NCBI GenBank assembly: GCA_000960865.2
Contig: JZWU02000005.1
Coordinates: forward strand, 1 to 64,000
From: Vulcanisaeta sp. AZ3
GTDB lineage: Archaea; Thermoproteota; Thermoprotei; Thermoproteales; Thermocladiaceae
DNA: 64,000 nucleotides
Direction: 5' to 3'
A program made the translations under genes and the position numbers. The notes beneath the pieces were generated by a model. It was given only the letters and a program-made list of their open reading frames with translations, did no database searches and was not told the origin of the DNA. Of the stretch, positions 14,051-62,362 are shown in pieces. The stretch's first letter is position 1. The number at the start of each line of letters is the position of its first letter.

Positions 14051-15232
14051 TTAAGGTTGCTGTGGAGAATATTTATTGCTCATCAAATCCCTTATTATTT
14101 GCTTAATATCTCCCTCGGTAATCCTAAAACCCGCATCACCTAATTCCTTAATTCTCTCTAGTATTTTATTTACTAAGACCTCGTGGGGCTCAATGCCCAT
14201 AGACCTAAGTACGAATTCTACAGAATGCCTACCACTATGCTTACCAATCACTATTTTACGGTTCATGCCAACACTCTCTGGACTTATTGGCTCATAAGTA
14301 ATCGGGTTGGATAACACACCATGTACGTGTATTCCAGATTCGTGAGAGAAGGCATTGGCACCAACAATGGCCTTATTCGGCGGCACTGGTATTTTAAACA
14401 ACCTAGATACCAAATCAGAGACTTCCTTTATCTTCTCGAACTTAATTCCAACGTTATAGTTTAACAGGAATTTCACGGCAGCTGCAATCTCCTCAAGTGC
14501 CGCATTACCAGCTCTCTCCCCAACACCGTTTATTGTACCATGCACTTGATCAGCCCCAGCCTCTATAGCTGTCACGCTATTGGCAACTGCCATTCCGAAG
14601 TCATCATGACAATGAACACTCAATAAATAATCACCCTTAACATTCTCCTTGACAAAACTAACAAGCCAAGCCATCTTACTCGGCCACATAACGCCCACCG
14701 TGTCGGCAATATCCAACCTATCAGCACCTGCATTAACAACCTCCTGGAAAACCCTTACGAGGAACTGCGGATCACTCCTAGTTGCATCCTCTGCACTAAA
14801 CTCCACAATCATACCATGAGACTTTGCGTATTCTACAGCTTCTACGGCGGTACTAACCACCTTCTCCCTATTCATCTTCAACTTATACTTCATGTGTATG
14901 TCTGATGTAGCTATGAAGATGTGTACAGCTCCAACGTCAGCATCAATGACCCTATTGATATCCTCTCTTCTCGTCCTAGCCAGAGCTATGACCTCGGTAT
15001 CAGTGACCTCCCTCGCTATATCCTTAACGGCCCTAAACTCACCATCGCTTACTATTGGAAAGCCAGCCTCTATTGAGTCAACACCCAACTCTTCAAGCTT
15101 AAGGGCTATGGCCAATTTATCCTCAGACCTCAGGGCAACACCAGGAGTTTGTTCGCCATCCCTTAGTGTCGTATCTAAGAACCTAACGTACCTACCACCT
15201 ACCGAACCCTGAACTACATTTTCCTGAGCAAT
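14051..15232 (-). CDS. leuA: 2-isopropylmalate synthase, short form without C-terminal regulatory domain; frame begins at ATT 15232
   Basis: DTTLRDGEQTPG lies upstream of the ORF-track start (15115); HCHDD, GERAGN and HESGIH motifs; adjacent to ilv/leu genes. Confidence 0.88.
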   Translation of the reverse strand: MAQENVVQGSVGGRYVRFLDTTLRDGEQTPGVALRSEDKLAIALKLEELGVDSIEAGFPIVSDGEFRAVKDIAREVTDTEVIALARTRREDINRVIDADVGAVHIFIATSDIHMKYKLKMNREKVVSTAVEAVEYAKSHGMIVEFSAEDATRSDPQFLVRVFQEVVNAGADRLDIADTVGVMWPSKMAWLVSFVKENVKGDYLLSVHCHDDFGMAVANSVTAIEAGADQVHGTINGVGERAGNAALEEIAAAVKFLLNYNVGIKFEKIKEVSDLVSRLFKIPVPPNKAIVGANAFSHESGIHVHGVLSNPITYEPISPESVGMNRKIVIGKHSGRHSVEFVLRSMGIEPHEVLVNKILERIKELGDAGFRITEGDIKQIIRDLMSNKYSPQQP

Positions 15233-15373
15233 CTATCCCACCAAACCTTAACTAAAAATACTCTATTTAAGCTTTATTCTAAGAGAAATATATTAATGAG
15301 AATCACGATAATAAACAATATATTTAGTTATGATGAAGAAAAACTTAAATATTCTATAGTTGACTTCCACCTG

Positions 15374-20373: not shown

Positions 20374-21049
20374 AACACATTATGTATATATGCCTTTTAA
20401 AGATTACACTGTATATATCGATATGGTCCTAATTAATTCAATATAATACAAATATGCGATCTAAAAAATCAATATAAGTTCTTGATATAATTGTAAGGGA
20501 TTATGTATAAGCAGCTAATATATTTTTATATTAAAATGATGGTATTATGAATAGCATTACTCCTCAGTGATGAATTACATAGAGAACGGTCGATAAACTC
20601 AGATCCCTAAAAAGGTATTTTTAACCATGCCTTGAGTAAATTATTGTAAAGTCATTAATAGTGTAACGATAGAGAGTTTGAATATAGCTACTAAATGTAC
20701 TCTGTCTGAATTTAATAAAGTGAAACTTATAGACCACGTTACTAAATGGAGTTAGAAATATGAAGAGAACAGTTAAGGCTTTCATAGAGTTTTCTAACGA
20801 AAGAACTAAGAGCTATCCATGGATATCACAATGACAAGTATCACAGGACTCTTCGATAATTTTAATTGCTACACACCTAAAATTTAATAATTATAATATT
20901 ACAAGGTAAGCAATAGAATTGGTATGGAGTATTCATAATTGATTAATAATTATTAATTTTGATATTTATGCTATGATCGTGAATATATATTTTTCTGGGA
21001 AAGGTAAATTTTAAATAGGTAGTATGCACGTGCCTATATAGGTGACTGG

Positions 21050-22176
21050 ATGGAAATGGAAACCAAGTACTAGATAGAGGCCTTTGGATTTCAAAGGTTG
21101 GGGGTTCCCTACTAACGAGAAAATCAACTCTTAGAACTATAAGCAGTGTTATTGGGAGAGATCTAAAGCCTGGCAGTAGATTAATCCTTGTGGTTTCAGC
21201 AATGAAGGGGGTAACGGACTTACTTATCAGAGCTCTAGATGAGCATAATCCTGCATTTATAGATGAAGCTGTGTCGATGTATGTTGATGAGGCGTTATAT
21301 CTTGAGTTAAAATCATATGCTAAGTTTCTGGAGTTTGTTAATGAGGAATTACGTAGGTTTGTGAATATAGATGAACCCTGGGTTAAGGATCATACTATTG
21401 TTCATGGAGAGTTATTGTCATCATTGCTTGTTGAGGGTATCTTAAATGATATAATTGGTGTTAGGGCTAAGGCGGTTTATGAACCTGGAATAGTGGTTAA
21501 GCAAGAGTGGGGTAATGCAAGTGTTATTCATGAGCTGAGTAATACCTTTGTTCGTGAAAGGTATGATGGATTGATTAGGAAGTACGATGTTGTAGTTGTA
21601 CCTGGATTCTTGGGTGTGACGTTGGATGGTAGGTATGCATCGTTGGGTAGGGGCGGCAGTGATTACACAGCTTCGTTGCTTGCTAACTATCTGAGTGCCT
21701 CAGGGCTGACGTTCTATACAGACAGTGGCGGTCTACTTAGTGGTGATCCTAAGGTTGTGAATGATCCTGTGCTCATTAGGGAGGTTTGTTATGAGGAGGC
21801 TTATGCGGCTGCGATGGTTGGCGCTAAGAAGTTCCATCCAAGGACCTTTGAACCATTACTTAATAGTAATGTTAGGATGTTAATAACAAGCCCGTGGCTT
21901 GATGTCGGTACTTATATAACTAATAAGTGTATTGACACACCTAAAATAGTTAGTCTTAGCGGTGATGGAAGGTCTCTTAAGGTTTCTGTGGTGGGTTATA
22001 ATGCAGCTAAGAGGGAAGATGTATTCAGTGAGGTTTATACTATTGCATCCTCGTACGGTATAAACAGTATTACGCATGATAACGATCACGTACTATCCAT
22101 GCCTGTGGATGATTATAAAATAGCATTAACCCTCGTTAGAGATATACATAGGTGGGTGAGAAAATGGATAAGTTGA
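21050..22176 (+). CDS. Aspartate kinase; ATG 21050 is out of frame and the kinase frame is reached by -1
   Basis: KVGGS (21094-21108) lies upstream of the first in-frame canonical start (21190); [15 protein letters not shown] and DP motifs. Confidence 0.88.
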
Positions 22177-35292: not shown

Positions 35293-36373
35293 ATGATTCG
35301 GATTAAGAAGACGCTACTTAGTACTTCAGGATGGAAGTATATATCGTGGTTATGCCTTTGGTGCTGATGGTAATGCCGTTGGGGAGGTCGTCTTCACAAC
35401 AGCTAACGTTGGCTATCCTGAATCACTCACAGATCCGTCGTATAAGGGGCAAATACTCATATTCACAATGCCGCTAATCGGCAATTACGGCGTATCGCCA
35501 GACCAATGGGAGAGCAGCTCAATTCAAGTTAGTGGTATAGTTGTATTTGATGTAACATCACCAAGCCATTATACGTCAATAATGAGTCTTGATGAGTGGT
35601 TAAGGAGGGATGGTATACCTGGTGTCTTTAGGGTTGATACGAGGGCTATAACTATCAAGTTAAGGGAGCTGGGTGTTATGATGGGCGCTATAGCTGATAA
35701 TCCGGCTGAGGGGTTTAGGTTGATTAGAAGTGCTCCTCGTTATGATGATTTTGATTTCGTAAAGCTCGTGTCACCAAGTGACATAATTAATTATGATAAT
35801 AATGATGGACCATGTATAGGTATTGTGGATTGTGGCGTAAAAATGGGTATTGTGAGAAACTTACTAGCAAGAGGCGTTAGGGTTGTTAGATATCCTTGTC
35901 ATATGTGGTCCAGGGTTATTAACGAATGCGACGGTGTCGTCTTAAGCAACGGTCCAGGCAACCCAAATCTCTTGAACTTTCTCATAGATGCCGTGACAGA
36001 CATAATTATGGATAGAAAGCCAACCCTAGGTATATGCCTAGGTCACCAAGTAATAGCCCTTGGTGTGGGGGCGAGACTTTATAAGATGAAGTATGGACAC
36101 AGAGCGATAAACAAGCCTGTGCTAGACTTAATTAGGGGAAGAGTCTACGTGACAACTCACAACCATGGTTATGCTGTAGATCCGCAATCAATAAAGGGTA
36201 CGGGCTTTAAGATATGGGCAGTACAACCCGATGATAAGACTGTAGAGGGTTTGATACATGAGAAGTTACCAATAATAACTACGCAATTCCATCCAGAGGC
36301 TAGGCCTGGGCCCAATGATACTACTTGGATCTTTGATGAGTTCATAAAGTTAGTGATGAGGTATGGACATTAG
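35293..36373 (+). CDS. carA: Carbamoyl-phosphate synthase small subunit; ATG 35293 is out of frame and the enzyme frame is reached by +1
   Basis: YLVLQDG, GEVVFTT and GYPESLTDPSYKGQI all lie upstream of the first in-frame ATG (35468); SNGPGNP, GICLGHQ and QFHPE motifs. Confidence 0.9.
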
Positions 36374-39491: not shown

Positions 39492-40635
39492 TTACGATCT
39501 CTCCTCAATTGGTATATACTTAAGTCCAATGGGTCCTGTATACCTCTCTGTAGGTCTTATCAGCTTACCATTCATCTGCCAATACTCAAGGGTATGTGCT
39601 GTCCAACCAACCATTCTTGCCATTGCGAAGTTGGCGGGATTATACTCGGGTGGGAATCCTAGGAAGTAAAATATTAGTGATGTATATAGGTCAGTATTTG
39701 CATAAATCCCCTTACTACTTAGGTGCTTTTCCACAGCTCTTTCAAGAGCAAGAGTAGTTTCGTAAAGTTTAACATAATCACTACCTCCCTCCTTAGCCAG
39801 ATCACTGGCAATAGCCCTGAGGTAAGTAAGCCTTGGATCGGCATACTTCTTATACAATCTATGACCAAAGCCTATGATCTTCTCCCCACGCCTCAACTTC
39901 TCCACCACATAGTTCTCAGCTTTAGATGGATCGGTGGCTTCCATTATTGTCCTCAGGGCTTCGAAACTCGCTCCTCCATGTAACGGACCCTTAAGACCCG
40001 ATAAAGCAGCTACCATAACCGAATAGATATCACTCCATGTCGAGGCCACAGTGACTGCTGTAAAGGAGGAGTTATTCATTCCATGTTCCATGTATGTTAT
40101 GAACATTGCCTCAAGAGCCCTTAACTCAGTGGTGCTAGGCTCCTTATTAAAGAACATGTAGAAATAATCGGCCACGTGACCTAAATCATCCCGTGGCCTT
40201 GGTATAATTCCATCACTACTTAATCTATAGTACGTAGCCACTATGGTGGGTGCCTTTGCTATGATAGATATGGCCTTCTCATAATCATTCTTACCCTTAC
40301 TAAAAGCCTCCTTTATCCAAGGTGCCTAAATGATTGATTGAAAGTCTGAGTACATCAATCGGACGTAGACCTCTCGGTAACTCTCTAAGTAAACTCAATA
40401 CCTCATTCGGTAGTTCTCTATTCATGGCCAACAAATCCTTAAAACTTGCTAGCCCCTCCTTATTGGGCAACTTCCCATTTAATAATAAATAGGCTACCTC
40501 CTCAAAGTTAGCCTTTACGGCAAGTTCTGATAAATCATAACCCCTATAGTAAATTTTCGCATTATCAAGGTCTATGAAACATACTTTACTCTCTTTAACT
40601 ATTATTCCCTCAAGACCCCAAGCAACTGTTGCCAT
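39492..40635 (-). pseudogene. gltA: Si-citrate synthase split by a +1 frameshift near 40300-40316
   Basis: N-part has GLEG..IYYRGY..FEEVAYLL; C-part has EHGMN, GPLHGGA, GFGHRLY and NTD; frames join as LDK|EAFSKGKNDYEKAISIIAKAPTIVA. Confidence 0.8.
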
Positions 40636-40678
40636 AAATAGCAATTTTCACAAATGAGCAGTTCTTTAAATTTATTTA

Positions 40679-43258: not shown

Positions 43259-44472
43259 TTAGTTCTTATGCCTAGCCCTAAATGCTGTTAATGAGTGCAT
43301 TGTGTGCATTTTAATGAAGCCTCTAGCTTCCTCCTCGCTTGGGTACCAACCACCTATGTAATCTACTAACTCCTTACTGTAGCTTGCATATGGGCTTTCC
43401 CTACCTACTATTGTTAATCCACCAAGCACCCTAATCCTCACTTTACCGCTAATCCACTTATTCATTGACCTAATAAGCTGCTCTAACTCTTCACGCAATG
43501 GCTCATGCCAAAGCCCTTGATAAACAAGATCTGTCCAGGTCTGATCCACAATCTTCTTAAACCTATACTCCAATGGTGTATAGATTAACTTTTCAAGATC
43601 CTTGTGAACCTCTATTAGCGTTAAGGCAGCAGGCGCTTCATAGACCTCCCTGGACTTAAAGCCCACAACTCTATTCTCCACATGGTCAATCCTACCAAAA
43701 CCGTGCATACCAACGATTCTATTTAACGTGGTTATTATGCTCACAAGATCCATCCTCTCGCCGTTAACAGCTATGGGTAAGCCCTCCTTGAACTCAATCT
43801 CTAGATTTAGTGGTTCATGTACCTTCTCTAGGGGGATCGTCCATTTGAATGCATCTTCAGGTACTTCCACAGATGGATCGTCTATCTCATGGCCCTCAAT
43901 GCTCCTCGACCATAGATTATCATCTATACTGAACCTGCTGTGTATGTTGGGTATTGGTATGTTGTTCCTTCTGGCATACTCAATCTCACTGGCCCTATCC
44001 ATATTCCAGATCTTGGCTGGTTCTATGATCATGAGATCAGGTGCTAATGCCATGAGGGCTTCATTAAATCTAACCTGGTCATTACCCTTAGACGTGGAGC
44101 CGTGGGCCACTGCATCGCAACCCTCCCTTTTAGCAACTTCAACAATTCTCTCAGCGATTAATGGTCTAGCTAATGCTGTACCTAATGGATACTTATCCTC
44201 GTAGAGAGCATTTGCCATTATCGCCGTGGCTACTGGGCCGTTGGCAAAGTCTTGCCTCGCATCTATAGTAATGTGCTTCGTAGCACCAGCTTTGTAAGCT
44301 CTTCTCTCAATGTCCTCAAAATCATCATCCTGACCAACATTGACCGTGACTGTTATAACCTCTGCATTAAACTTACTCCTTAACCAATGAATTGCAACTG
44401 TGGTGTCTAAACCTCCTGAGAATGCTAAGACAATTTTACCTGGCTTTTTGTGCTCCGGTTTAAATTATTCAC
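43259..44472 (-). CDS. argG: Argininosuccinate synthase; GTG 44472 is out of frame and the enzyme frame is reached by -1
   Basis: KIVLAFSGGLDT PP-loop lies upstream of the first in-frame start (44218); HGSTSKGNDQVRF and KSREVYEAP motifs. Confidence 0.92.
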
Positions 44473-58321: not shown

Positions 58322-58835
58322 TTCTGATTAATAATAAAGGGATTACAGTCACGTGAATAATACAACACCTCGGCAATTGCTGCCCGAGCCTATGTGGCCT
58401 TAAATTACTTATTGAAGCAAGAGCTCTATTCAAATAGAAAACGACAATGAATTCCTCCCCTTAGATCCACACTAATTAGAATTATTGACAACACGAACTT
58501 CGCCATTAACTTGAGCATCAACATGTGCTAATTTATCTCTAATAAAGTACATCGTATACCATAAGGATAGAGACTATTACTACCTACTATACGTAAATGC
58601 CTCATTACCTCAGCAGTTACCATAGTCCTATCCCTAAACTCAATCATTTAATAATGTAGTAATTAATACTGTGAAGATTAATACTTTAATCACAAATTAA
58701 TTAATCATAATGCACATTGTTATTTAAAATGCATAATTCCTTTATTAAATTTACAAAGTCTTAATTTATATTTATAATTAACAATAATTATTGATAATTC
58801 GTAAAATTTATAAGCAGCAATTGGTACAATTGTCG

Positions 58836-59276
58836 ATGGATATTACAGTGGATAAAATAATAAAGAGAGAATCCCCCCTTACAATTAACGAAAACGCCAA
58901 AGCAAGAGAGGCCATAGGAGTAATGGCTAGGGAAAATGTGGGTCTACTCGTTATAGTAGATAATGCAGGTAAACCAGTTGGCGTGATATCTGAGAGAGAC
59001 GTGGTAAAGGCCTTAGCTAGAGGTATAGACCTAAATGCTAAGGTTTCCGAAATTGGTACGATGGGTAAAATAATATCAGTTAGCCCCCATGATAGTATAT
59101 ACAAGGCTGCAATTTTAATGAACAACAACAATGTTAGGCATTTAGTGGTTATGGATGGTGATAAGTTACGTGGCGTTATCTCAATAAGGGATATAATAAA
59201 CGAAGAGAGAGTTGTATCCAGACTTGCAGAGGCAGCAGGGGCCAAGCCTGAAACCGAAATACCTGGTGGTGATTAA
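58836..59276 (+). CDS. CBS-domain pair protein
   Basis: VGVISERD, VRHLVV and GVISIRD motifs. Confidence 0.9.
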   Translation: MDITVDKIIKRESPLTINENAKAREAIGVMARENVGLLVIVDNAGKPVGVISERDVVKALARGIDLNAKVSEIGTMGKIISVSPHDSIYKAAILMNNNNVRHLVVMDGDKLRGVISIRDIINEERVVSRLAEAAGAKPETEIPGGD

Positions 59277-59332
59277 AGCTTAAAATTATCTCTAGTAATA
59301 ATTAAAAACGATGGTTTTTCTCAGGAGATGAA

Positions 59333-62300
59333 ATGAGGAATTTTAAGTCAAGAGTCGAGGAACTATATGGCGATTTCCTTAAGGAGATTAGGGAAATTGA
59401 ACATAAATGGCAAAACGAATGGCATAAGAACGGAATATTCAATGCAGAACCAAGGCCCGATAAGCCTAAGTACTTCATAACCGTGCCCTATCCATACGTC
59501 TCAGGAGCTCCTCACATAGGTCATGCAAGGACATTCACTATTGGCGATATCATAGCCAGGTATAAAAGAGCTAGAGGGTTCAATGTTTTATTCCCCATAG
59601 CGTGGCACATAACTGGGACACCAATACAATCCGTGGCCGATAGAATCATGAAGGGTGACCCAGATGATATTAAATTATATTCCTGGTATGTGAGCCTCTA
59701 TGTAAATGACCCAGAAGGAGTTAGGAACACATTGAACACATTCACTAACCCCTGGAACATAGCCCAATTCTTCGCCTCAGTCTACATTAGAGACTTCATG
59801 TCCATGGGATATTCCATGGATTTCAGGAGACAATTTACAACAGGCGATCCAGACTATAATGCCTTCATTATCTGGCAGTACTATAGATTGAAGGATGCGG
59901 GTTATATAACTCAAGGTAGCCATGTAGTCCTCTACTCACCAAATGAAGGACAAGCAGTTGGTGAACATGACATTAAGGGTGGAGATGAACTAAACATTGA
60001 TGTATTAGAATTCAACCTAATTAAGTTTAGGCTCGAGGGTTCAAATGAATATTTAGTGGCAGCCACATTGAGACCGGAGACTATTTACGGCATAACTAAC
60101 ATATGGGTAAGACCTGATTTAGAGTATGTAATTGCGGAAGTAGACAGCGAGAAGTGGATTATATCAAAACCAGCAATGTGGAAGCTTAGCTACCAAGGTT
60201 ATGAGATTAAAGCTGTCGGTAGTATACGTGGGGAGGAATTAATTGGTAAATACGCAATGACGCCTTTAATTAATAGGAGAATCCCTATACTACCTGCCTC
60301 ATTCATCGACGAGAGCACAGGAACCGGCATTGTTTATAGTGTACCTGCCCACGCACCTTACGACTACGTGGCGCTCATGGACCTAAAGAAGAATGAAGCT
60401 CTGCTTGTTAAGTATGGTATTAAGGATGTCGTGAATACCATAGAACCAATATCAATAATTAAATTACCCAATTACGGTAAGTACCCAGCCAAAGATGTTG
60501 TGGAGAGGCTTGGTGTTAAGGATCAAAGTAATAGGGAGGCGCTCGATGAGGCGACTAGGGTAATTTACAGAGAGGAATTCTATAATGGCGTTATGAGAGA
60601 GAACACGTTATTCCCGGGAGTTAGTGTTGATGATGCCAGAAAGAAAACAATTGAGGCGCTTAAAGATCAGGGCGCTTGGGGTAGAATGTATGAACTAGAG
60701 CCTAGAGATGTATTCACAAGGAGCGGTAATCCAGTCATAGCAGCGGTAATTAAGGATCAGTGGTTTCTCAACTATGGAAATCCCGAGTGGAAAGAGAAAG
60801 CATTCAAATGTCTAAATTCAATGAAGATAGTGCCGGAGAAGTATAGAAAGAATTTCGAGGATGTATTTAATTGGTTATCCATGAGGCCCTGCGCTAGGAA
60901 GAGAGGTTTAGGTACTAGGCTTCCCTGGGATCCCGACTGGATAATTGAATCGTTAAGCGACTCAACGATATACATGGCCTACTACACAATAGCCCATAAG
61001 ATAAAGGGAAGTGATTTGCATAAGAAACTTGGTGATCTTGCAAGACGTGTAATAAATAGTAGGGGATCTGATGAGGGTGCTCTAAGTGCCATAATGGCTT
61101 TCTTTAATTACGTATTCCTAGGCGAGGGAGATCCGGGTAAGGTGGCTAATGTGTTTGGTGTTGATAGGAGATTTATTGAGGAGTTAAGGAATGAATTTAA
61201 TTACTGGTATCCTGTAGATGAGAGACATAGTGGCCCTGACCTAATAGGTAGCCACCTGAGTTTCTTCGTATTCCACCATGCAGCCATTTTCCCAGAGAGG
61301 TATTGGCCTAGAGCGATAACATTGAATGAATACGTAATTAGGGAGGGTATGAAGATGAGCAGATCCTTGGGTAACGTACTACCCATGCCCTACGTACCGA
61401 CACACTATAGTGCCGACTTAACTAGACTATACATAGCATCCGCAGCTGACTTAGACACAACTCTTGACTGGAGGGAAGATGATGTTGTGAGCACGACCAG
61501 TAGACTTGTAAAGTTCTGGAACATTGTTAATGACATAATTAGGGTTGAGAAAACGCAGACAAGCCCAGATATTAACTTCCTCTCCCTGGCGACTCGCTGG
61601 ATAGTGTCCAGAGTGAATAGGGCAATACGTGATGCAACCGTGGATATAGAGAACGAGAACATAAGGGGTTACGCCCTAAAGGCCTTCTTCGACTTACTTG
61701 CATCTGTGGAGAAGTATCTAGAACTCACAAATGCAGTTGGTGTGAATAAGGATGAGGTTAGGTGGGCTCTGTGGTATGTGCTTGAACGTTGGATTAAGCT
61801 GCTTCAACCGATGATCCCACACATTACTGAGGAGGCTTGGCATAGAGTAGGTAATGCATCATTCGTGTCCCTAGAGCCTTGGCCTGAGTATGATGAGGGG
61901 CTAATAAATGATGAGCTAGATATAGCCCTGGATATAATAGAAAGGACAATAGACGATATACAGGAAATATTAAAGGTCACGAAGATAACGCCAAAGACCA
62001 TACATATATATGTCGGTCCACCCAATGATTACTACGAAATAATCAATGAGGCAGCTAAGATGGTAAGTGAGGGTAAGACTATGGGTGAAATTATAAGGGC
62101 TATAATAGCTAAGCCTGAGTATAGACGCATAGCCGATAAGGTTGCTAACCTCATCTCACGGTACATAGATGGAACAATACCCAGGAAGGTTGTTCGCAGA
62201 GATATGGAGCTCATGACATTTAAGGAGCTTACAGCATACATCAAATATAGGGTAGGTGTTGACATCGTAATACAGGATGCCCTAAACCCAACTTACGACC

Positions 62301-62362
62301 CAAGCAATAGGGCTAAAAACGCCTTACCAGGCAGACCAGCCATTTATGTGGAGACCAGTTAA
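59333..62362 (+). CDS. leuS: Leucine--tRNA ligase (archaeal type)
   Basis: PYPYVSGAPHIGH, ATLRPET, GTGIVYSVPAHAP, ESLSDSTIY, KMSRS and ALPGRPAI motifs. Confidence 0.93.
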   Translation: MRNFKSRVEELYGDFLKEIREIEHKWQNEWHKNGIFNAEPRPDKPKYFITVPYPYVSGAPHIGHARTFTIGDIIARYKRARGFNVLFPIAWHITGTPIQSVADRIMKGDPDDIKLYSWYVSLYVNDPEGVRNTLNTFTNPWNIAQFFASVYIRDFMSMGYSMDFRRQFTTGDPDYNAFIIWQYYRLKDAGYITQGSHVVLYSPNEGQAVGEHDIKGGDELNIDVLEFNLIKFRLEGSNEYLVAATLRPETIYGITNIWVRPDLEYVIAEVDSEKWIISKPAMWKLSYQGYEIKAVGSIRGEELIGKYAMTPLINRRIPILPASFIDESTGTGIVYSVPAHAPYDYVALMDLKKNEALLVKYGIKDVVNTIEPISIIKLPNYGKYPAKDVVERLGVKDQSNREALDEATRVIYREEFYNGVMRENTLFPGVSVDDARKKTIEALKDQGAWGRMYELEPRDVFTRSGNPVIAAVIKDQWFLNYGNPEWKEKAFKCLNSMKIVPEKYRKNFEDVFNWLSMRPCARKRGLGTRLPWDPDWIIESLSDSTIYMAYYTIAHKIKGSDLHKKLGDLARRVINSRGSDEGALSAIMAFFNYVFLGEGDPGKVANVFGVDRRFIEELRNEFNYWYPVDERHSGPDLIGSHLSFFVFHHAAIFPERYWPRAITLNEYVIREGMKMSRSLGNVLPMPYVPTHYSADLTRLYIASAADLDTTLDWREDDVVSTTSRLVKFWNIVNDIIRVEKTQTSPDINFLSLATRWIVSRVNRAIRDATVDIENENIRGYALKAFFDLLASVEKYLELTNAVGVNKDEVRWALWYVLERWIKLLQPMIPHITEEAWHRVGNASFVSLEPWPEYDEGLINDELDIALDIIERTIDDIQEILKVTKITPKTIHIYVGPPNDYYEIINEAAKMVSEGKTMGEIIRAIIAKPEYRRIADKVANLISRYIDGTIPRKVVRRDMELMTFKELTAYIKYRVGVDIVIQDALNPTYDPSNRAKNALPGRPAIYVETS

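Follow-up and report, generated by a model that had tools for sequence, protein, structure and literature searches.

In a stretch of 64,000 nucleotides from Vulcanisaeta sp. AZ3 (contig JZWU02000005.1, positions 1 to 64,000; hereafter the window), leuS, the gene for leucyl-tRNA synthetase (LeuRS), is preceded by a 22-nt leader holding a short open reading frame (ORF), and leuS lies in the +1 frame of this mini-ORF. We propose that the leader is a functional +1 frameshift site gated by a leucine codon, which would couple LeuRS synthesis to the supply of charged tRNA-Leu, and we put the probability of this reading at about 65%. The basis is a comparison of the sequences of related genomes; from it we infer where the transcripts begin, that the mini-ORF is translated, and that the ribosome shifts frame there in a way that depends on Leu-tRNA. 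The locus comprises the following elements.

59333..62362, plus strand: leuS, leucine--tRNA ligase, 1009 aa from ATG 59333 (NCBIfam TIGR00395, 990.7 bits against a cut-off of 648.5).
59311..59331, plus strand: mini-ORF ATG GTT TTT CTC AGG AGA TGA (MVFLRR, then stop), 0 frame, as read from the sequence.
59317..59323, plus strand: proposed +1 shift site TTT CTC A (T_TTC type), at which TTT in the P site would re-pair to TTC.
59276..59288, plus strand: putative promoter P1, AAGCTTAAAATTA, resembling a transcription factor B recognition element and TATA box (BRE/TATA), which places the predicted transcript start at or next to ATG 59311.
59296..59308, plus strand: putative promoter P2, a second A/T box, TAATAATTAAAAA, from which a leaderless leuS mRNA beginning at ATG 59333 is predicted (a bypass).
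59323..59331, plus strand: Shine-Dalgarno-like (SD-like) motif AGGAGATGA overlapping the mini-ORF stop, which could drive direct initiation at ATG 59333 on P1 transcripts.
58791..59276, plus strand: upstream neighbour from the ORF list, a CBS-domain gene (weak NCBIfam CBS-type matches), whose stop TAA (59274-76) directly adjoins the promoter region of leuS; loci of the same genus have this gene in front of leuS as well.

The codons of the mini-ORF are ATG (59311-13), GTT, TTT (59317-19), CTC (59320-22), AGG, AGA and TGA (59329-31), followed by a single A at 59332 and by ATG at 59333-35. An earlier reading of this DNA, made from its letters (the sequence-only reading), had given these codons and positions exactly. 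It had also stated that the +1 frame runs into LeuRS, and this is confirmed by the TIGR00395 match of the ORF 59333-62362, with which TTC TCA GGA GAT GAA ATG is in frame. At the shift site the A site holds CTC (Leu) in frame 0 and TCA (Ser) in frame +1, and the predicted frameshift product carries MVFSGDE added to the LeuRS N terminus (codons 59311-59319, then 59321 onward). The gene is single-copy, the remaining class-I matches in the genome being of the Ile/Val/Met type. Residue 20 of this LeuRS corresponds in alignment to residue 7 of the P. horikoshii enzyme of known structure (1WKB, 1WZ2), indicating that the N-terminal ~13 aa are a lineage-specific extension.

We read 60 leuS 5' ends, of which 40 came from the order (62 genomes, 60 with a match) and 20 from other families of the class. 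The design was scored where a start codon is followed by 0-4 codons, (T/A)TT, a Leu codon and a stop within 0-9 codons, with leuS in +1. It was found in 28 of the 60 loci: in all 13 of the window's own genus (g1), in all six and all four of the sister genera g2 and g5, in both loci of g7 (a genus in another family), and in the two loci of family f6 and the one of family f7. The +1 relation between mini-ORF and leuS is kept in every one of these 28 loci. In all of them, too, the 0-frame codon after (T/A)TT encodes Leu, spelled CTC, CTT, CTA or TTG; the same bases in the leuS frame read TCA, TTA, TTC, TAT or TGG, that is Ser, Leu, Phe, Tyr or Trp. A Leu codon that varies synonymously in the mini-ORF frame and is variable in the leuS frame is what selection on the mini-ORF frame at this codon would be expected to leave. 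The slip codon is TTT_C in 23 loci and ATT_C/T in five, where two of three pairs are retained on re-pairing. Phe is TTT in 23 of 23 Phe loci and never TTC, the genomic TTT:TTC usage being 48:52. The slip from TTT to TTC with a Leu codon waiting, proposed earlier from the single sequence, thus finds its (T/A)TT-plus-Leu pattern kept in all design loci, which is consistent with a shared shift site. The leader also has two of the features looked for in a +1 frameshift site, overlapping ORFs with the main one in +1 and a P-site codon predicted to re-pair.

Within g1 all 13 loci read ATG - NNN - (T/A)TT - CT(C/T), 22 nt upstream of the leuS ATG. The slip codon is TTT in 11 and ATT in two, the Leu codon CTC in ten and CTT in three, and the peptides follow the pattern M-x-(F/I)-L-... 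with a freely variable codon 2. The upstream intergenic sequence is almost wholly variable, whereas the TTAAAA of P2, the ATG, TT and CT are invariant; the mini-ORF, whose conservation the sequence-only reading had named as a test, keeps its ATG in 13 of 13 loci. Its TGA stands at the same position in 11 of the 13. The two other loci (L007 and L008) have neither this TGA nor the SD-like motif and retain TTT CTC, and their mini-ORFs extend 15-27 nt into leuS.

Outside the window's genus the same relation is spelled in other ways, with leuS in +1 each time. The six g2 loci carry a AAAGCTTAAATA box, 22 nt, and then ATG (CGG/AAG) TTT CTT CTC (AAG/GGA) followed by TAA or TAG; the four g5 loci have a leaderless ATG (AAC/AGC) TTT CTA TAA. 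Both g7 loci read GAGGTGA, 5 nt, GTG GTG CAG AGC TTT CTA TAA. In the three loci of f6 and f7, whose LeuRS is 58% identical to the window's, an SD sequence is followed after 5-6 nt by ATG GGT GAY (TAC/CAT/TAT) ATT (TTG/CTC/CTT) .. .. TGA. Across loci the mini-ORF ATG is found at the leaderless position, with TATA centres at -25 to -28. The design is absent from g4 (0/7) and from family f2 (0/7), which have plain in-frame starts. The single g3 locus shows a remnant, ATG ATT AAC TTT CCT, in which the P1 box is lost and a GTG start occurs with a P2-like box. A metagenome scan yielded 80 leuS loci, all distant (35-51% identity), of which 75 had enough 5' flank to be read; 70 of these 75 have ordinary in-frame starts, which indicates that the device is lineage-restricted and not general to archaea. 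Two metagenome loci (L155 and L163) read ATG GAA CTC with leuS in -1, and three loci from other families (L089 in genome G093, L079 in G084, L085 in G076) have short ATG or GTG ORFs with leuS in +1.

How often such an arrangement arises by chance was gauged in this 1.5-Mb genome, where 67 places combine a TATA box, an ATG mini-ORF and a long +1 ORF. Eleven of these have a usable (A/T)TT_Y site, and two of the eleven then have a Leu codon, namely leuS and a GNAT-like ORF. The arrangement alone, in one genome, is therefore weak evidence; its conservation and its placement at leuS exceed chance. The GNAT-like ORF (assembly G000, contig C9, minus strand, index ~36197) has ATG GTG TTT CTT CAT GAA TTG TAA at a leaderless position with the ORF in +1, an architecture that is probably due to chance.

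Whether LeuRS can be made without a shift differs between lineages. In g2 and g5 a TGA that overlaps the mini-ORF ATG closes the leuS frame, which has no conserved ATG, GTG or TTG, and the P2 box is missing. One g2 locus from a complete genome (L012) has no in-frame start at all near the leuS 5' end, and the g2 codon at +24 is ATA, ATG or GTG depending on the species. The g2 codons after the slip site evolve as coding sequence in the leuS frame (TCA/TCG, AAA/AAG/AGG, GAA/GAG/GAT/GAC, GAG/GAA, GTT/GTG/GTA/GCG, CTT/TTG/TTA). They encode E-F-V-(K/R)-E-L, homologous to D-F-L-(K/R)-E-I of g1 and to the M-D-F N terminus of f2, and this EF/DF motif is common to all other LeuRS N termini. The g5 codons are likewise coding-like in the leuS frame (GAT/GAC, GTC/GTT/GTA, AGG/AAG, GAA/GAG), and an ATG-started ribosome has only AAC TTT CTA at which to enter that frame. 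The main frames of g2 and g5 are intact for 975-997 aa with one leuS copy per genome, and the fused in-frame N terminus of g4, MSEFLKILREI, resembles the predicted g5 shift product, MSF followed by YNDTVREML. Judged from these alignments, a +1 shift at TTT_C appears obligatory in g2 and g5, as the only simple route to LeuRS in these ten loci, and that leuS needs such a shift there seems to us somewhat more probable than the leucine-gated reading as a whole. An in-frame start is also present in g1, g7, f6 and f7.

Support for a cognate-codon gate comes from other genes. Several amino-acid genes of the window lack their N termini in NCBIfam alignments when read from the first canonical start. 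At carA (~35293-35301, plus strand) the g1 loci begin with a leaderless ATG ATT CGG (11/12) or ATG CTT CGG (1/12); the enzyme is in +1 (TGA, then TTC GGA TTA AGA...), its frame is closed by the TGA of ATGA, and no in-frame start is conserved. CGG is the rarest Arg codon, at 1% of Arg codons. The carA leader of g1 thus has, as far as its sequence tells, the same design as that of leuS, with Arg as the putative gate. In g2 (L180-L185), carA carries a leaderless upstream ORF (uORF), ATG ATG GGA CGA GCA TGA (MMGRA, then stop), whose stop overlaps the normal carA ATG; this could be a reinitiation-type version of the same idea. At argG (~44455-44472, minus strand) all eight g1 loci have GTG, two codons, and (TTA/CTA/ATA) AAC CGG with the main frame in -1; the window reads GTG AAT AAT TTA AAC CGG ..., the enzyme frame being AAA CCG GAG.... 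The argG loci of g2 (5/5) and g5 (3/3) read ATG GAT AAY CTG G(G/A)A CGA, again with the main frame in -1, and no in-frame start is conserved in the g1, g2 or g5 loci.

leuA and proS show another form. No canonical in-frame start precedes the conserved RFLDTTLRDGEQ motif of leuA (~15226-15241, minus strand); the window has GTG GGA TAG at a leaderless position, then ATT GCT CAG, overlapped by TTG CTC AGG AAA ATG TAG (MLRKM, then stop). ATT GCT C/T after an SD-like GGTGG/GGGAT is found in 24 of 25 family loci, the 25th being a broken assembly in which the motif is visible by eye. An in-frame TAG directly precedes the ATT in g1 and g2, with TGG at this place in one complete genome and TAY in g4. 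The overlapping frame opens with TTG CTC, a start and a Leu codon, and reaches a stop within 1-7 codons. The start here may be a dual one (AUU/UUG), or the Leu codon may gate a -1 shift. proS (L244/L245; assembly G000, contig C1, ~71368, minus strand) also lacks a canonical start and has ATT GCC A/G after an SD-like GGGGAT(C) in 22 of 23 family loci, the motif being absent in the neighbouring family f2 (0/7); the frame that overlaps it has a start and then a Pro codon, TTG CCA or TTG CCG. The synonymous third base of the Ala codon is T in leuA, giving CTN (Leu), and C in proS, giving CCN (Pro), with usages of.34 for GCT and.26 for GCC, so that this base tracks the cognate codon of the overlapping TTG-started frame. 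Among the leuS genes of other families (L074-L090), 11 of 17 carry GGTG-N(4-8)-(A/T)TTGCT, once ATTGTT (giving TTG TTG), which is a leuA-type module with TTG and a Leu codon in an overlapping frame.

These parallels at carA, argG, leuA and proS are, on sequence grounds, the strongest support for a cognate-codon gate at leuS, and they favour the view of the sequence-only reading that the leuS leader belongs to a wider system, since apparently analogous leaders occur at four further genes. The same reading had suggested examining the 5' ends of other aminoacyl-tRNA synthetase (aaRS) genes for cognate codons. Among the 11 further aaRS ORFs of this genome found through PF00133, PF00587 and PF00152, other aaRS families lying outside the scan, none has the WTT plus cognate-codon +1 design; what the suggestion did turn up is proS with its A-TTG-CCA. 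If the reading is right, leuS, carA, argG, leuA and proS of these genomes lack a canonical in-frame start near the true N terminus, and gene calling based on start codons would be expected to truncate them.

Tentatively, and at somewhat less than even odds, we extend the proposal to a lineage-wide sensing of amino acids by choice of reading frame at leuS, leuA, proS, carA and argG, perhaps also at aspartokinase. A P-site tRNA would pair in two registers (Phe or Ile on WUU_C; Glu, Gly or Asn on G_GRA or A_AAC; the initiator on A_UUG), while in the abortive register the A site would hold the pathway's own codon. A shortage of the charged tRNA would then favour the other register, in which the enzyme is made. 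This would include the dual AUU/UUG start, where the first elongator tRNA would set the frame; the working of the -1 and A-UUG versions is one we infer.

At leuS itself the positions of the promoters fit this proposal. The TATA that the sequence-only reading placed at 59279 is an A/T box, CTTAAAATTAT, which is not a literal TATA and is promoter-like at a leaderless distance, its TTAAAA being centred 28 nt before ATG 59311. TATA-like hexamers peak genome-wide at -26/-27 before start codons (1620 ORFs of the 1.5-Mb genome, with the first start codon as reference). Most mRNAs of this genome are therefore probably leaderless, and ATG 59311 sits where a leaderless mRNA would begin. P2, which the earlier reading did not mention, has its TTAAAA at 59302-07, centred -28/-29 from ATG 59333. 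A box of the P2 type occurs only in g1 and g3, the two genera with an in-frame start ~24 nt downstream. Both P1 and P2 thus lie close to the distance of a TATA box from a leaderless start (~26-27 nt), pointing to predicted 5' ends at both ATGs. SD-like pentamers peak at -12/-11 before starts genome-wide, and AGGAG starts at -10 from ATG 59333; because the 16S rRNA 3' end was not found in this assembly, statements on SD motifs come from this enrichment profile.

We envisage that transcription from P1 would give a leaderless mRNA starting at ATG 59311, on which the ribosome would read ATG GTT TTT and bring CTC (Leu) into the A site. With Leu-tRNA(GAG) plentiful, CTC would be decoded and translation would end at TGA after a 6-residue peptide. 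With Leu-tRNA(GAG) scarce, through little LeuRS activity or little leucine, the A site would stay empty and peptidyl-tRNA-Phe could re-pair from UUU (G:U wobble) to UUC (G:C pair). Ser-tRNA would then read UCA, and the ribosome would continue in the leuS frame to give LeuRS with the MVFSGDE extension. Since LeuRS charges the tRNA that reads the gating Leu codon, this would constitute a negative feedback. In g1, P2 and the SD-like sequence would let ATG 59333 supply basal LeuRS; g2 and g5 lack this bypass and would depend on the shift for all their LeuRS.

Several observations weigh against this proposal. In g1 LeuRS can be made directly and the shift is not required, the in-frame ATG being present in 13/13 loci with a TATA box of its own and an SD-like motif in 11/13, so that the g1 leader could be a relic. 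g3 and g4 manage without the device. In the two g1 loci and the three f6/f7 loci with ATT, an AUU-to-UUC shift would create a first-position mismatch. The strictly invariant core is only W-T-T-Y-T, and a signal at the nucleotide level in place of one at the codon level is possible from this invariance. CTC, CTT and CTA are ordinary codons (13-20% of Leu codons), and since they are not rare any pause would have to reflect the charging level alone. Fold and shuffle tests support no stimulatory RNA structure at the leuS leader. The 28 design loci are phylogenetically related, and such counts overstate their independence. As far as the consulted part of PMC8211752 goes, the -1 shift in Saccharolobus solfataricus fucA1 was the only programmed frameshift demonstrated in archaeal cells as of 2021; this source treats two further cases as suggestions, a +1 event in a halovirus and a shift in magnesium chelatase whose direction it does not give.

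Three other explanations were weighed against the leucine-gated shift. It is unlikely, we think, that the leader is an ordinary 5' region, with leuS expressed leaderless from P2 or from P1 by an SD-led start, the mini-ORF never used and the conserved 22-nt block serving as promoter-proximal or initiation sequence. This would account for the invariant second TATA box (centre -28/-29 from ATG 59333, 13/13), the in-frame ATG (13/13) and AGGAG at -10, and the architecture by itself does occur 67 times in the genome. It leaves g2 and g5 unexplained, where there is no second TATA box, no conserved in-frame start and an upstream stretch that evolves as coding; nor does it explain why four families share the mini-ORF ATG, a TTT that is never TTC and a synonymously varying Leu codon, or why carA, argG, leuA and proS have parallel cognate-codon leaders. 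A constitutive +1 shift without a regulatory role, acting as a 'translational correction' of an old indel or setting a low expression level, with the Leu codon incidental, would explain the conserved frame relation and slip site and the apparently obligatory shift in g2 and g5, and fits Leu codons that are not rare. We regard it as the least probable of the three: all 28 leuS loci with the design have Leu in the A site, in four spellings, as carA and argG have Arg and proS has Pro, and under a constitutive shift the codon would not be expected to suit the function of the gene.

A uORF acting without any frameshift is improbable as well, though marginally less so than an ordinary 5' region. MVFLRR would be completed and followed by reinitiation at TGAAATG, or stalling would mask or unmask the leuS start, with the Leu codon as modulator. 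The sequence-only reading had invoked reinitiation at ATG 59333 for basal expression; what stands is that the ATG is kept in 13/13 loci and that TGA-A-ATG, a stop 1 nt from the start as coupling requires, occurs in 11/13. The leaderless carA uORF of g2, with its stop overlapping the main ATG and a rare Arg codon, has a true reinitiation layout, and leaderless short ORFs with cognate codons act as attenuators in mycobacteria, according to the portion of bioRxiv 10.1101/834739 used here. However, L007 and L008 have no TGA and run 15-27 nt into leuS, and g2 and g5 offer no start codon at which to reinitiate. Stalling at CTC would leave the ribosome over the leuS start and lower LeuRS when it is needed, and the preference for TTT over TTC and the constant +1 relation would go unexplained. 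For basal LeuRS in g1, the second promoter with its leaderless leuS mRNA, the SD-like GGAGATGA, or both, would be a simpler explanation than reinitiation alone.

The closest likeness of the proposed leucine-gated shift is to release factor 2 (RF2; prfB, CUU_UGA_C). As the sections of PMC5009743 on RF2 describe it, an essential translation-factor gene opens with a short 0-frame ORF and continues in +1, the codon in the A site is decoded with the help of the gene's own product, low activity gives a longer pause and more shift and product, and the P-site tRNA re-pairs one base downstream, so that CUU_U with its own stop codon allows autoregulation. At leuS the A-site signal would be a sense Leu codon read by LeuRS-charged tRNA, not a stop, the slip codon is UUU or AUU and not CUU, the host is archaeal and the shift would be facultative in g1. 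Unlike RF2, leuS has no upstream SD stimulator, which follows from the site lying 6 nt from the predicted leaderless 5' end. The same source, in the parts drawn on here, describes UUU_Ynn as especially prone to +1 shifting in bacteria and hungry or slow A-site codons as favouring +1 shifts. Hungry-codon UUU_Y sites in E. coli (argI, synthetic) and the influenza A PA-X site (UCC_UUU_CGU), as presented there, resemble leuS in having UUU_C with a slow A-site trigger, and ATT CGG of g1 carA resembles the CGN-triggered PA-X site. These are errors or a viral device for a second product, in contrast to a sensor tied to the function of the gene that carries it. fucA1 of S. solfataricus is, in what we used of PMC8211752, a cellular crenarchaeal gene whose full-length product needs a frameshift; it differs in being a -1 shift on A_AAA_AAT in mid-gene, with no known sensing role, in a non-essential gene and without conservation across families.

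In Gram-positive bacteria, T-box riboswitches regulate leuS and leu/ilv genes, scarce or uncharged tRNA-Leu raising synthetase and biosynthesis with a Leu codon as specifier. The output logic would be the same at the leuS leader. A T-box, however, binds tRNA directly without ribosomes, through a ~200-nt structured leader and transcription termination, whereas this leader is 22 nt and would be read by the ribosome; a scan of 59150-59550 against Rfam 15 at E<=1 gave no match, to a T-box covariance model or any other. The leuS leader is not a member of the T-box family, and of the archaeal T-box equivalent put forward by the sequence-only reading the functional analogy is what remains. Leader-peptide attenuation (trp, leu, pheST) likewise uses a tiny 5' ORF with codons of the sensed amino acid; it relies on runs of such codons and works through alternative RNA hairpins, termination or occlusion, whereas at leuS one or two codons would be read and the output would be a change of frame. 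Neither alternative hairpins with a terminator nor a cognate-rich leader is supported; this leader has one Leu codon and that of g2 has two. In mycobacteria the poly-Cys short ORFs, as treated in the part of bioRxiv 10.1101/834739 consulted, are leaderless, as predicted for the leuS mini-ORF.

From these comparisons the leuS leader would be a new form of regulatory +1 frameshifting, with an RF2-like working and a T-box-like output and belonging to neither. To our knowledge archaea have no T-boxes and no classical attenuators, and how they match aaRS and biosynthetic capacity to demand is largely unknown. In our literature searches, supplementary files aside, neither a leuS frameshift nor control by frameshifting at cognate codons in archaea came up. 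If the proposal is true, several families share a programmed +1 frameshift through which an essential archaeal gene is expressed, and the shift is a built-in sensor of the product of its own enzyme, as RF2 is in bacteria. If frame choice is used as widely as the tentative extension has it, it would do in archaea, by frame selection alone, what attenuation and T-boxes do in bacteria.

Some further candidates were rejected. In single-sequence folds the leader TTCTCAGGAAG pairs with the downstream coding stretch TTTCCTGAGGGA, and the RNAalifold consensus is weak (-10 kcal/mol, covariation term -1.0); a conserved helix between leader and coding sequence (columns 8-18 with 64-74) was dismissed, its 88.6% pairing being equalled by 391 of 500 shuffles and only one pair showing a double change. 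A Ty1-like CTT_AGG site with a hungry AGG does not hold, as AGG is the commonest Arg codon (60%), nor does transcriptional slippage, the T runs being 2-5 nt and differing between species. The BRE/TATA that leuS shares with leuA was discarded as an indication of co-regulation: AAGCTTAAA has 23 genomic copies, including one at a tRNA gene, and is thus a common promoter word, so that the P1 box is not Leu-specific. Of 31 (A/T)TTGCT matches near ORF starts in this genome leuA alone is convincing, and a regulon built on this motif was rejected.

Two further genes of the window deserve mention. The aspartokinase ORF (~21042-21075, plus strand) has no canonical start ahead of the catalytic K-(V/F)-G-G, and three frames overlap there. 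Its leader GGTGA..G ATG GAA ATG GAA ACC is almost invariant in the genus, with AAACCTGTA (in frame from GTG) in three species and AAACCCTGTA (a CCC_U +1 site) in five. Citrate synthase (39492-40644, minus strand) is split into 113 aa (profile positions 2-103) and 248 aa (130-368), with a gap or frame break near 40241-40300, which may reflect a pseudogene, an error of assembly or a further case of recoding.

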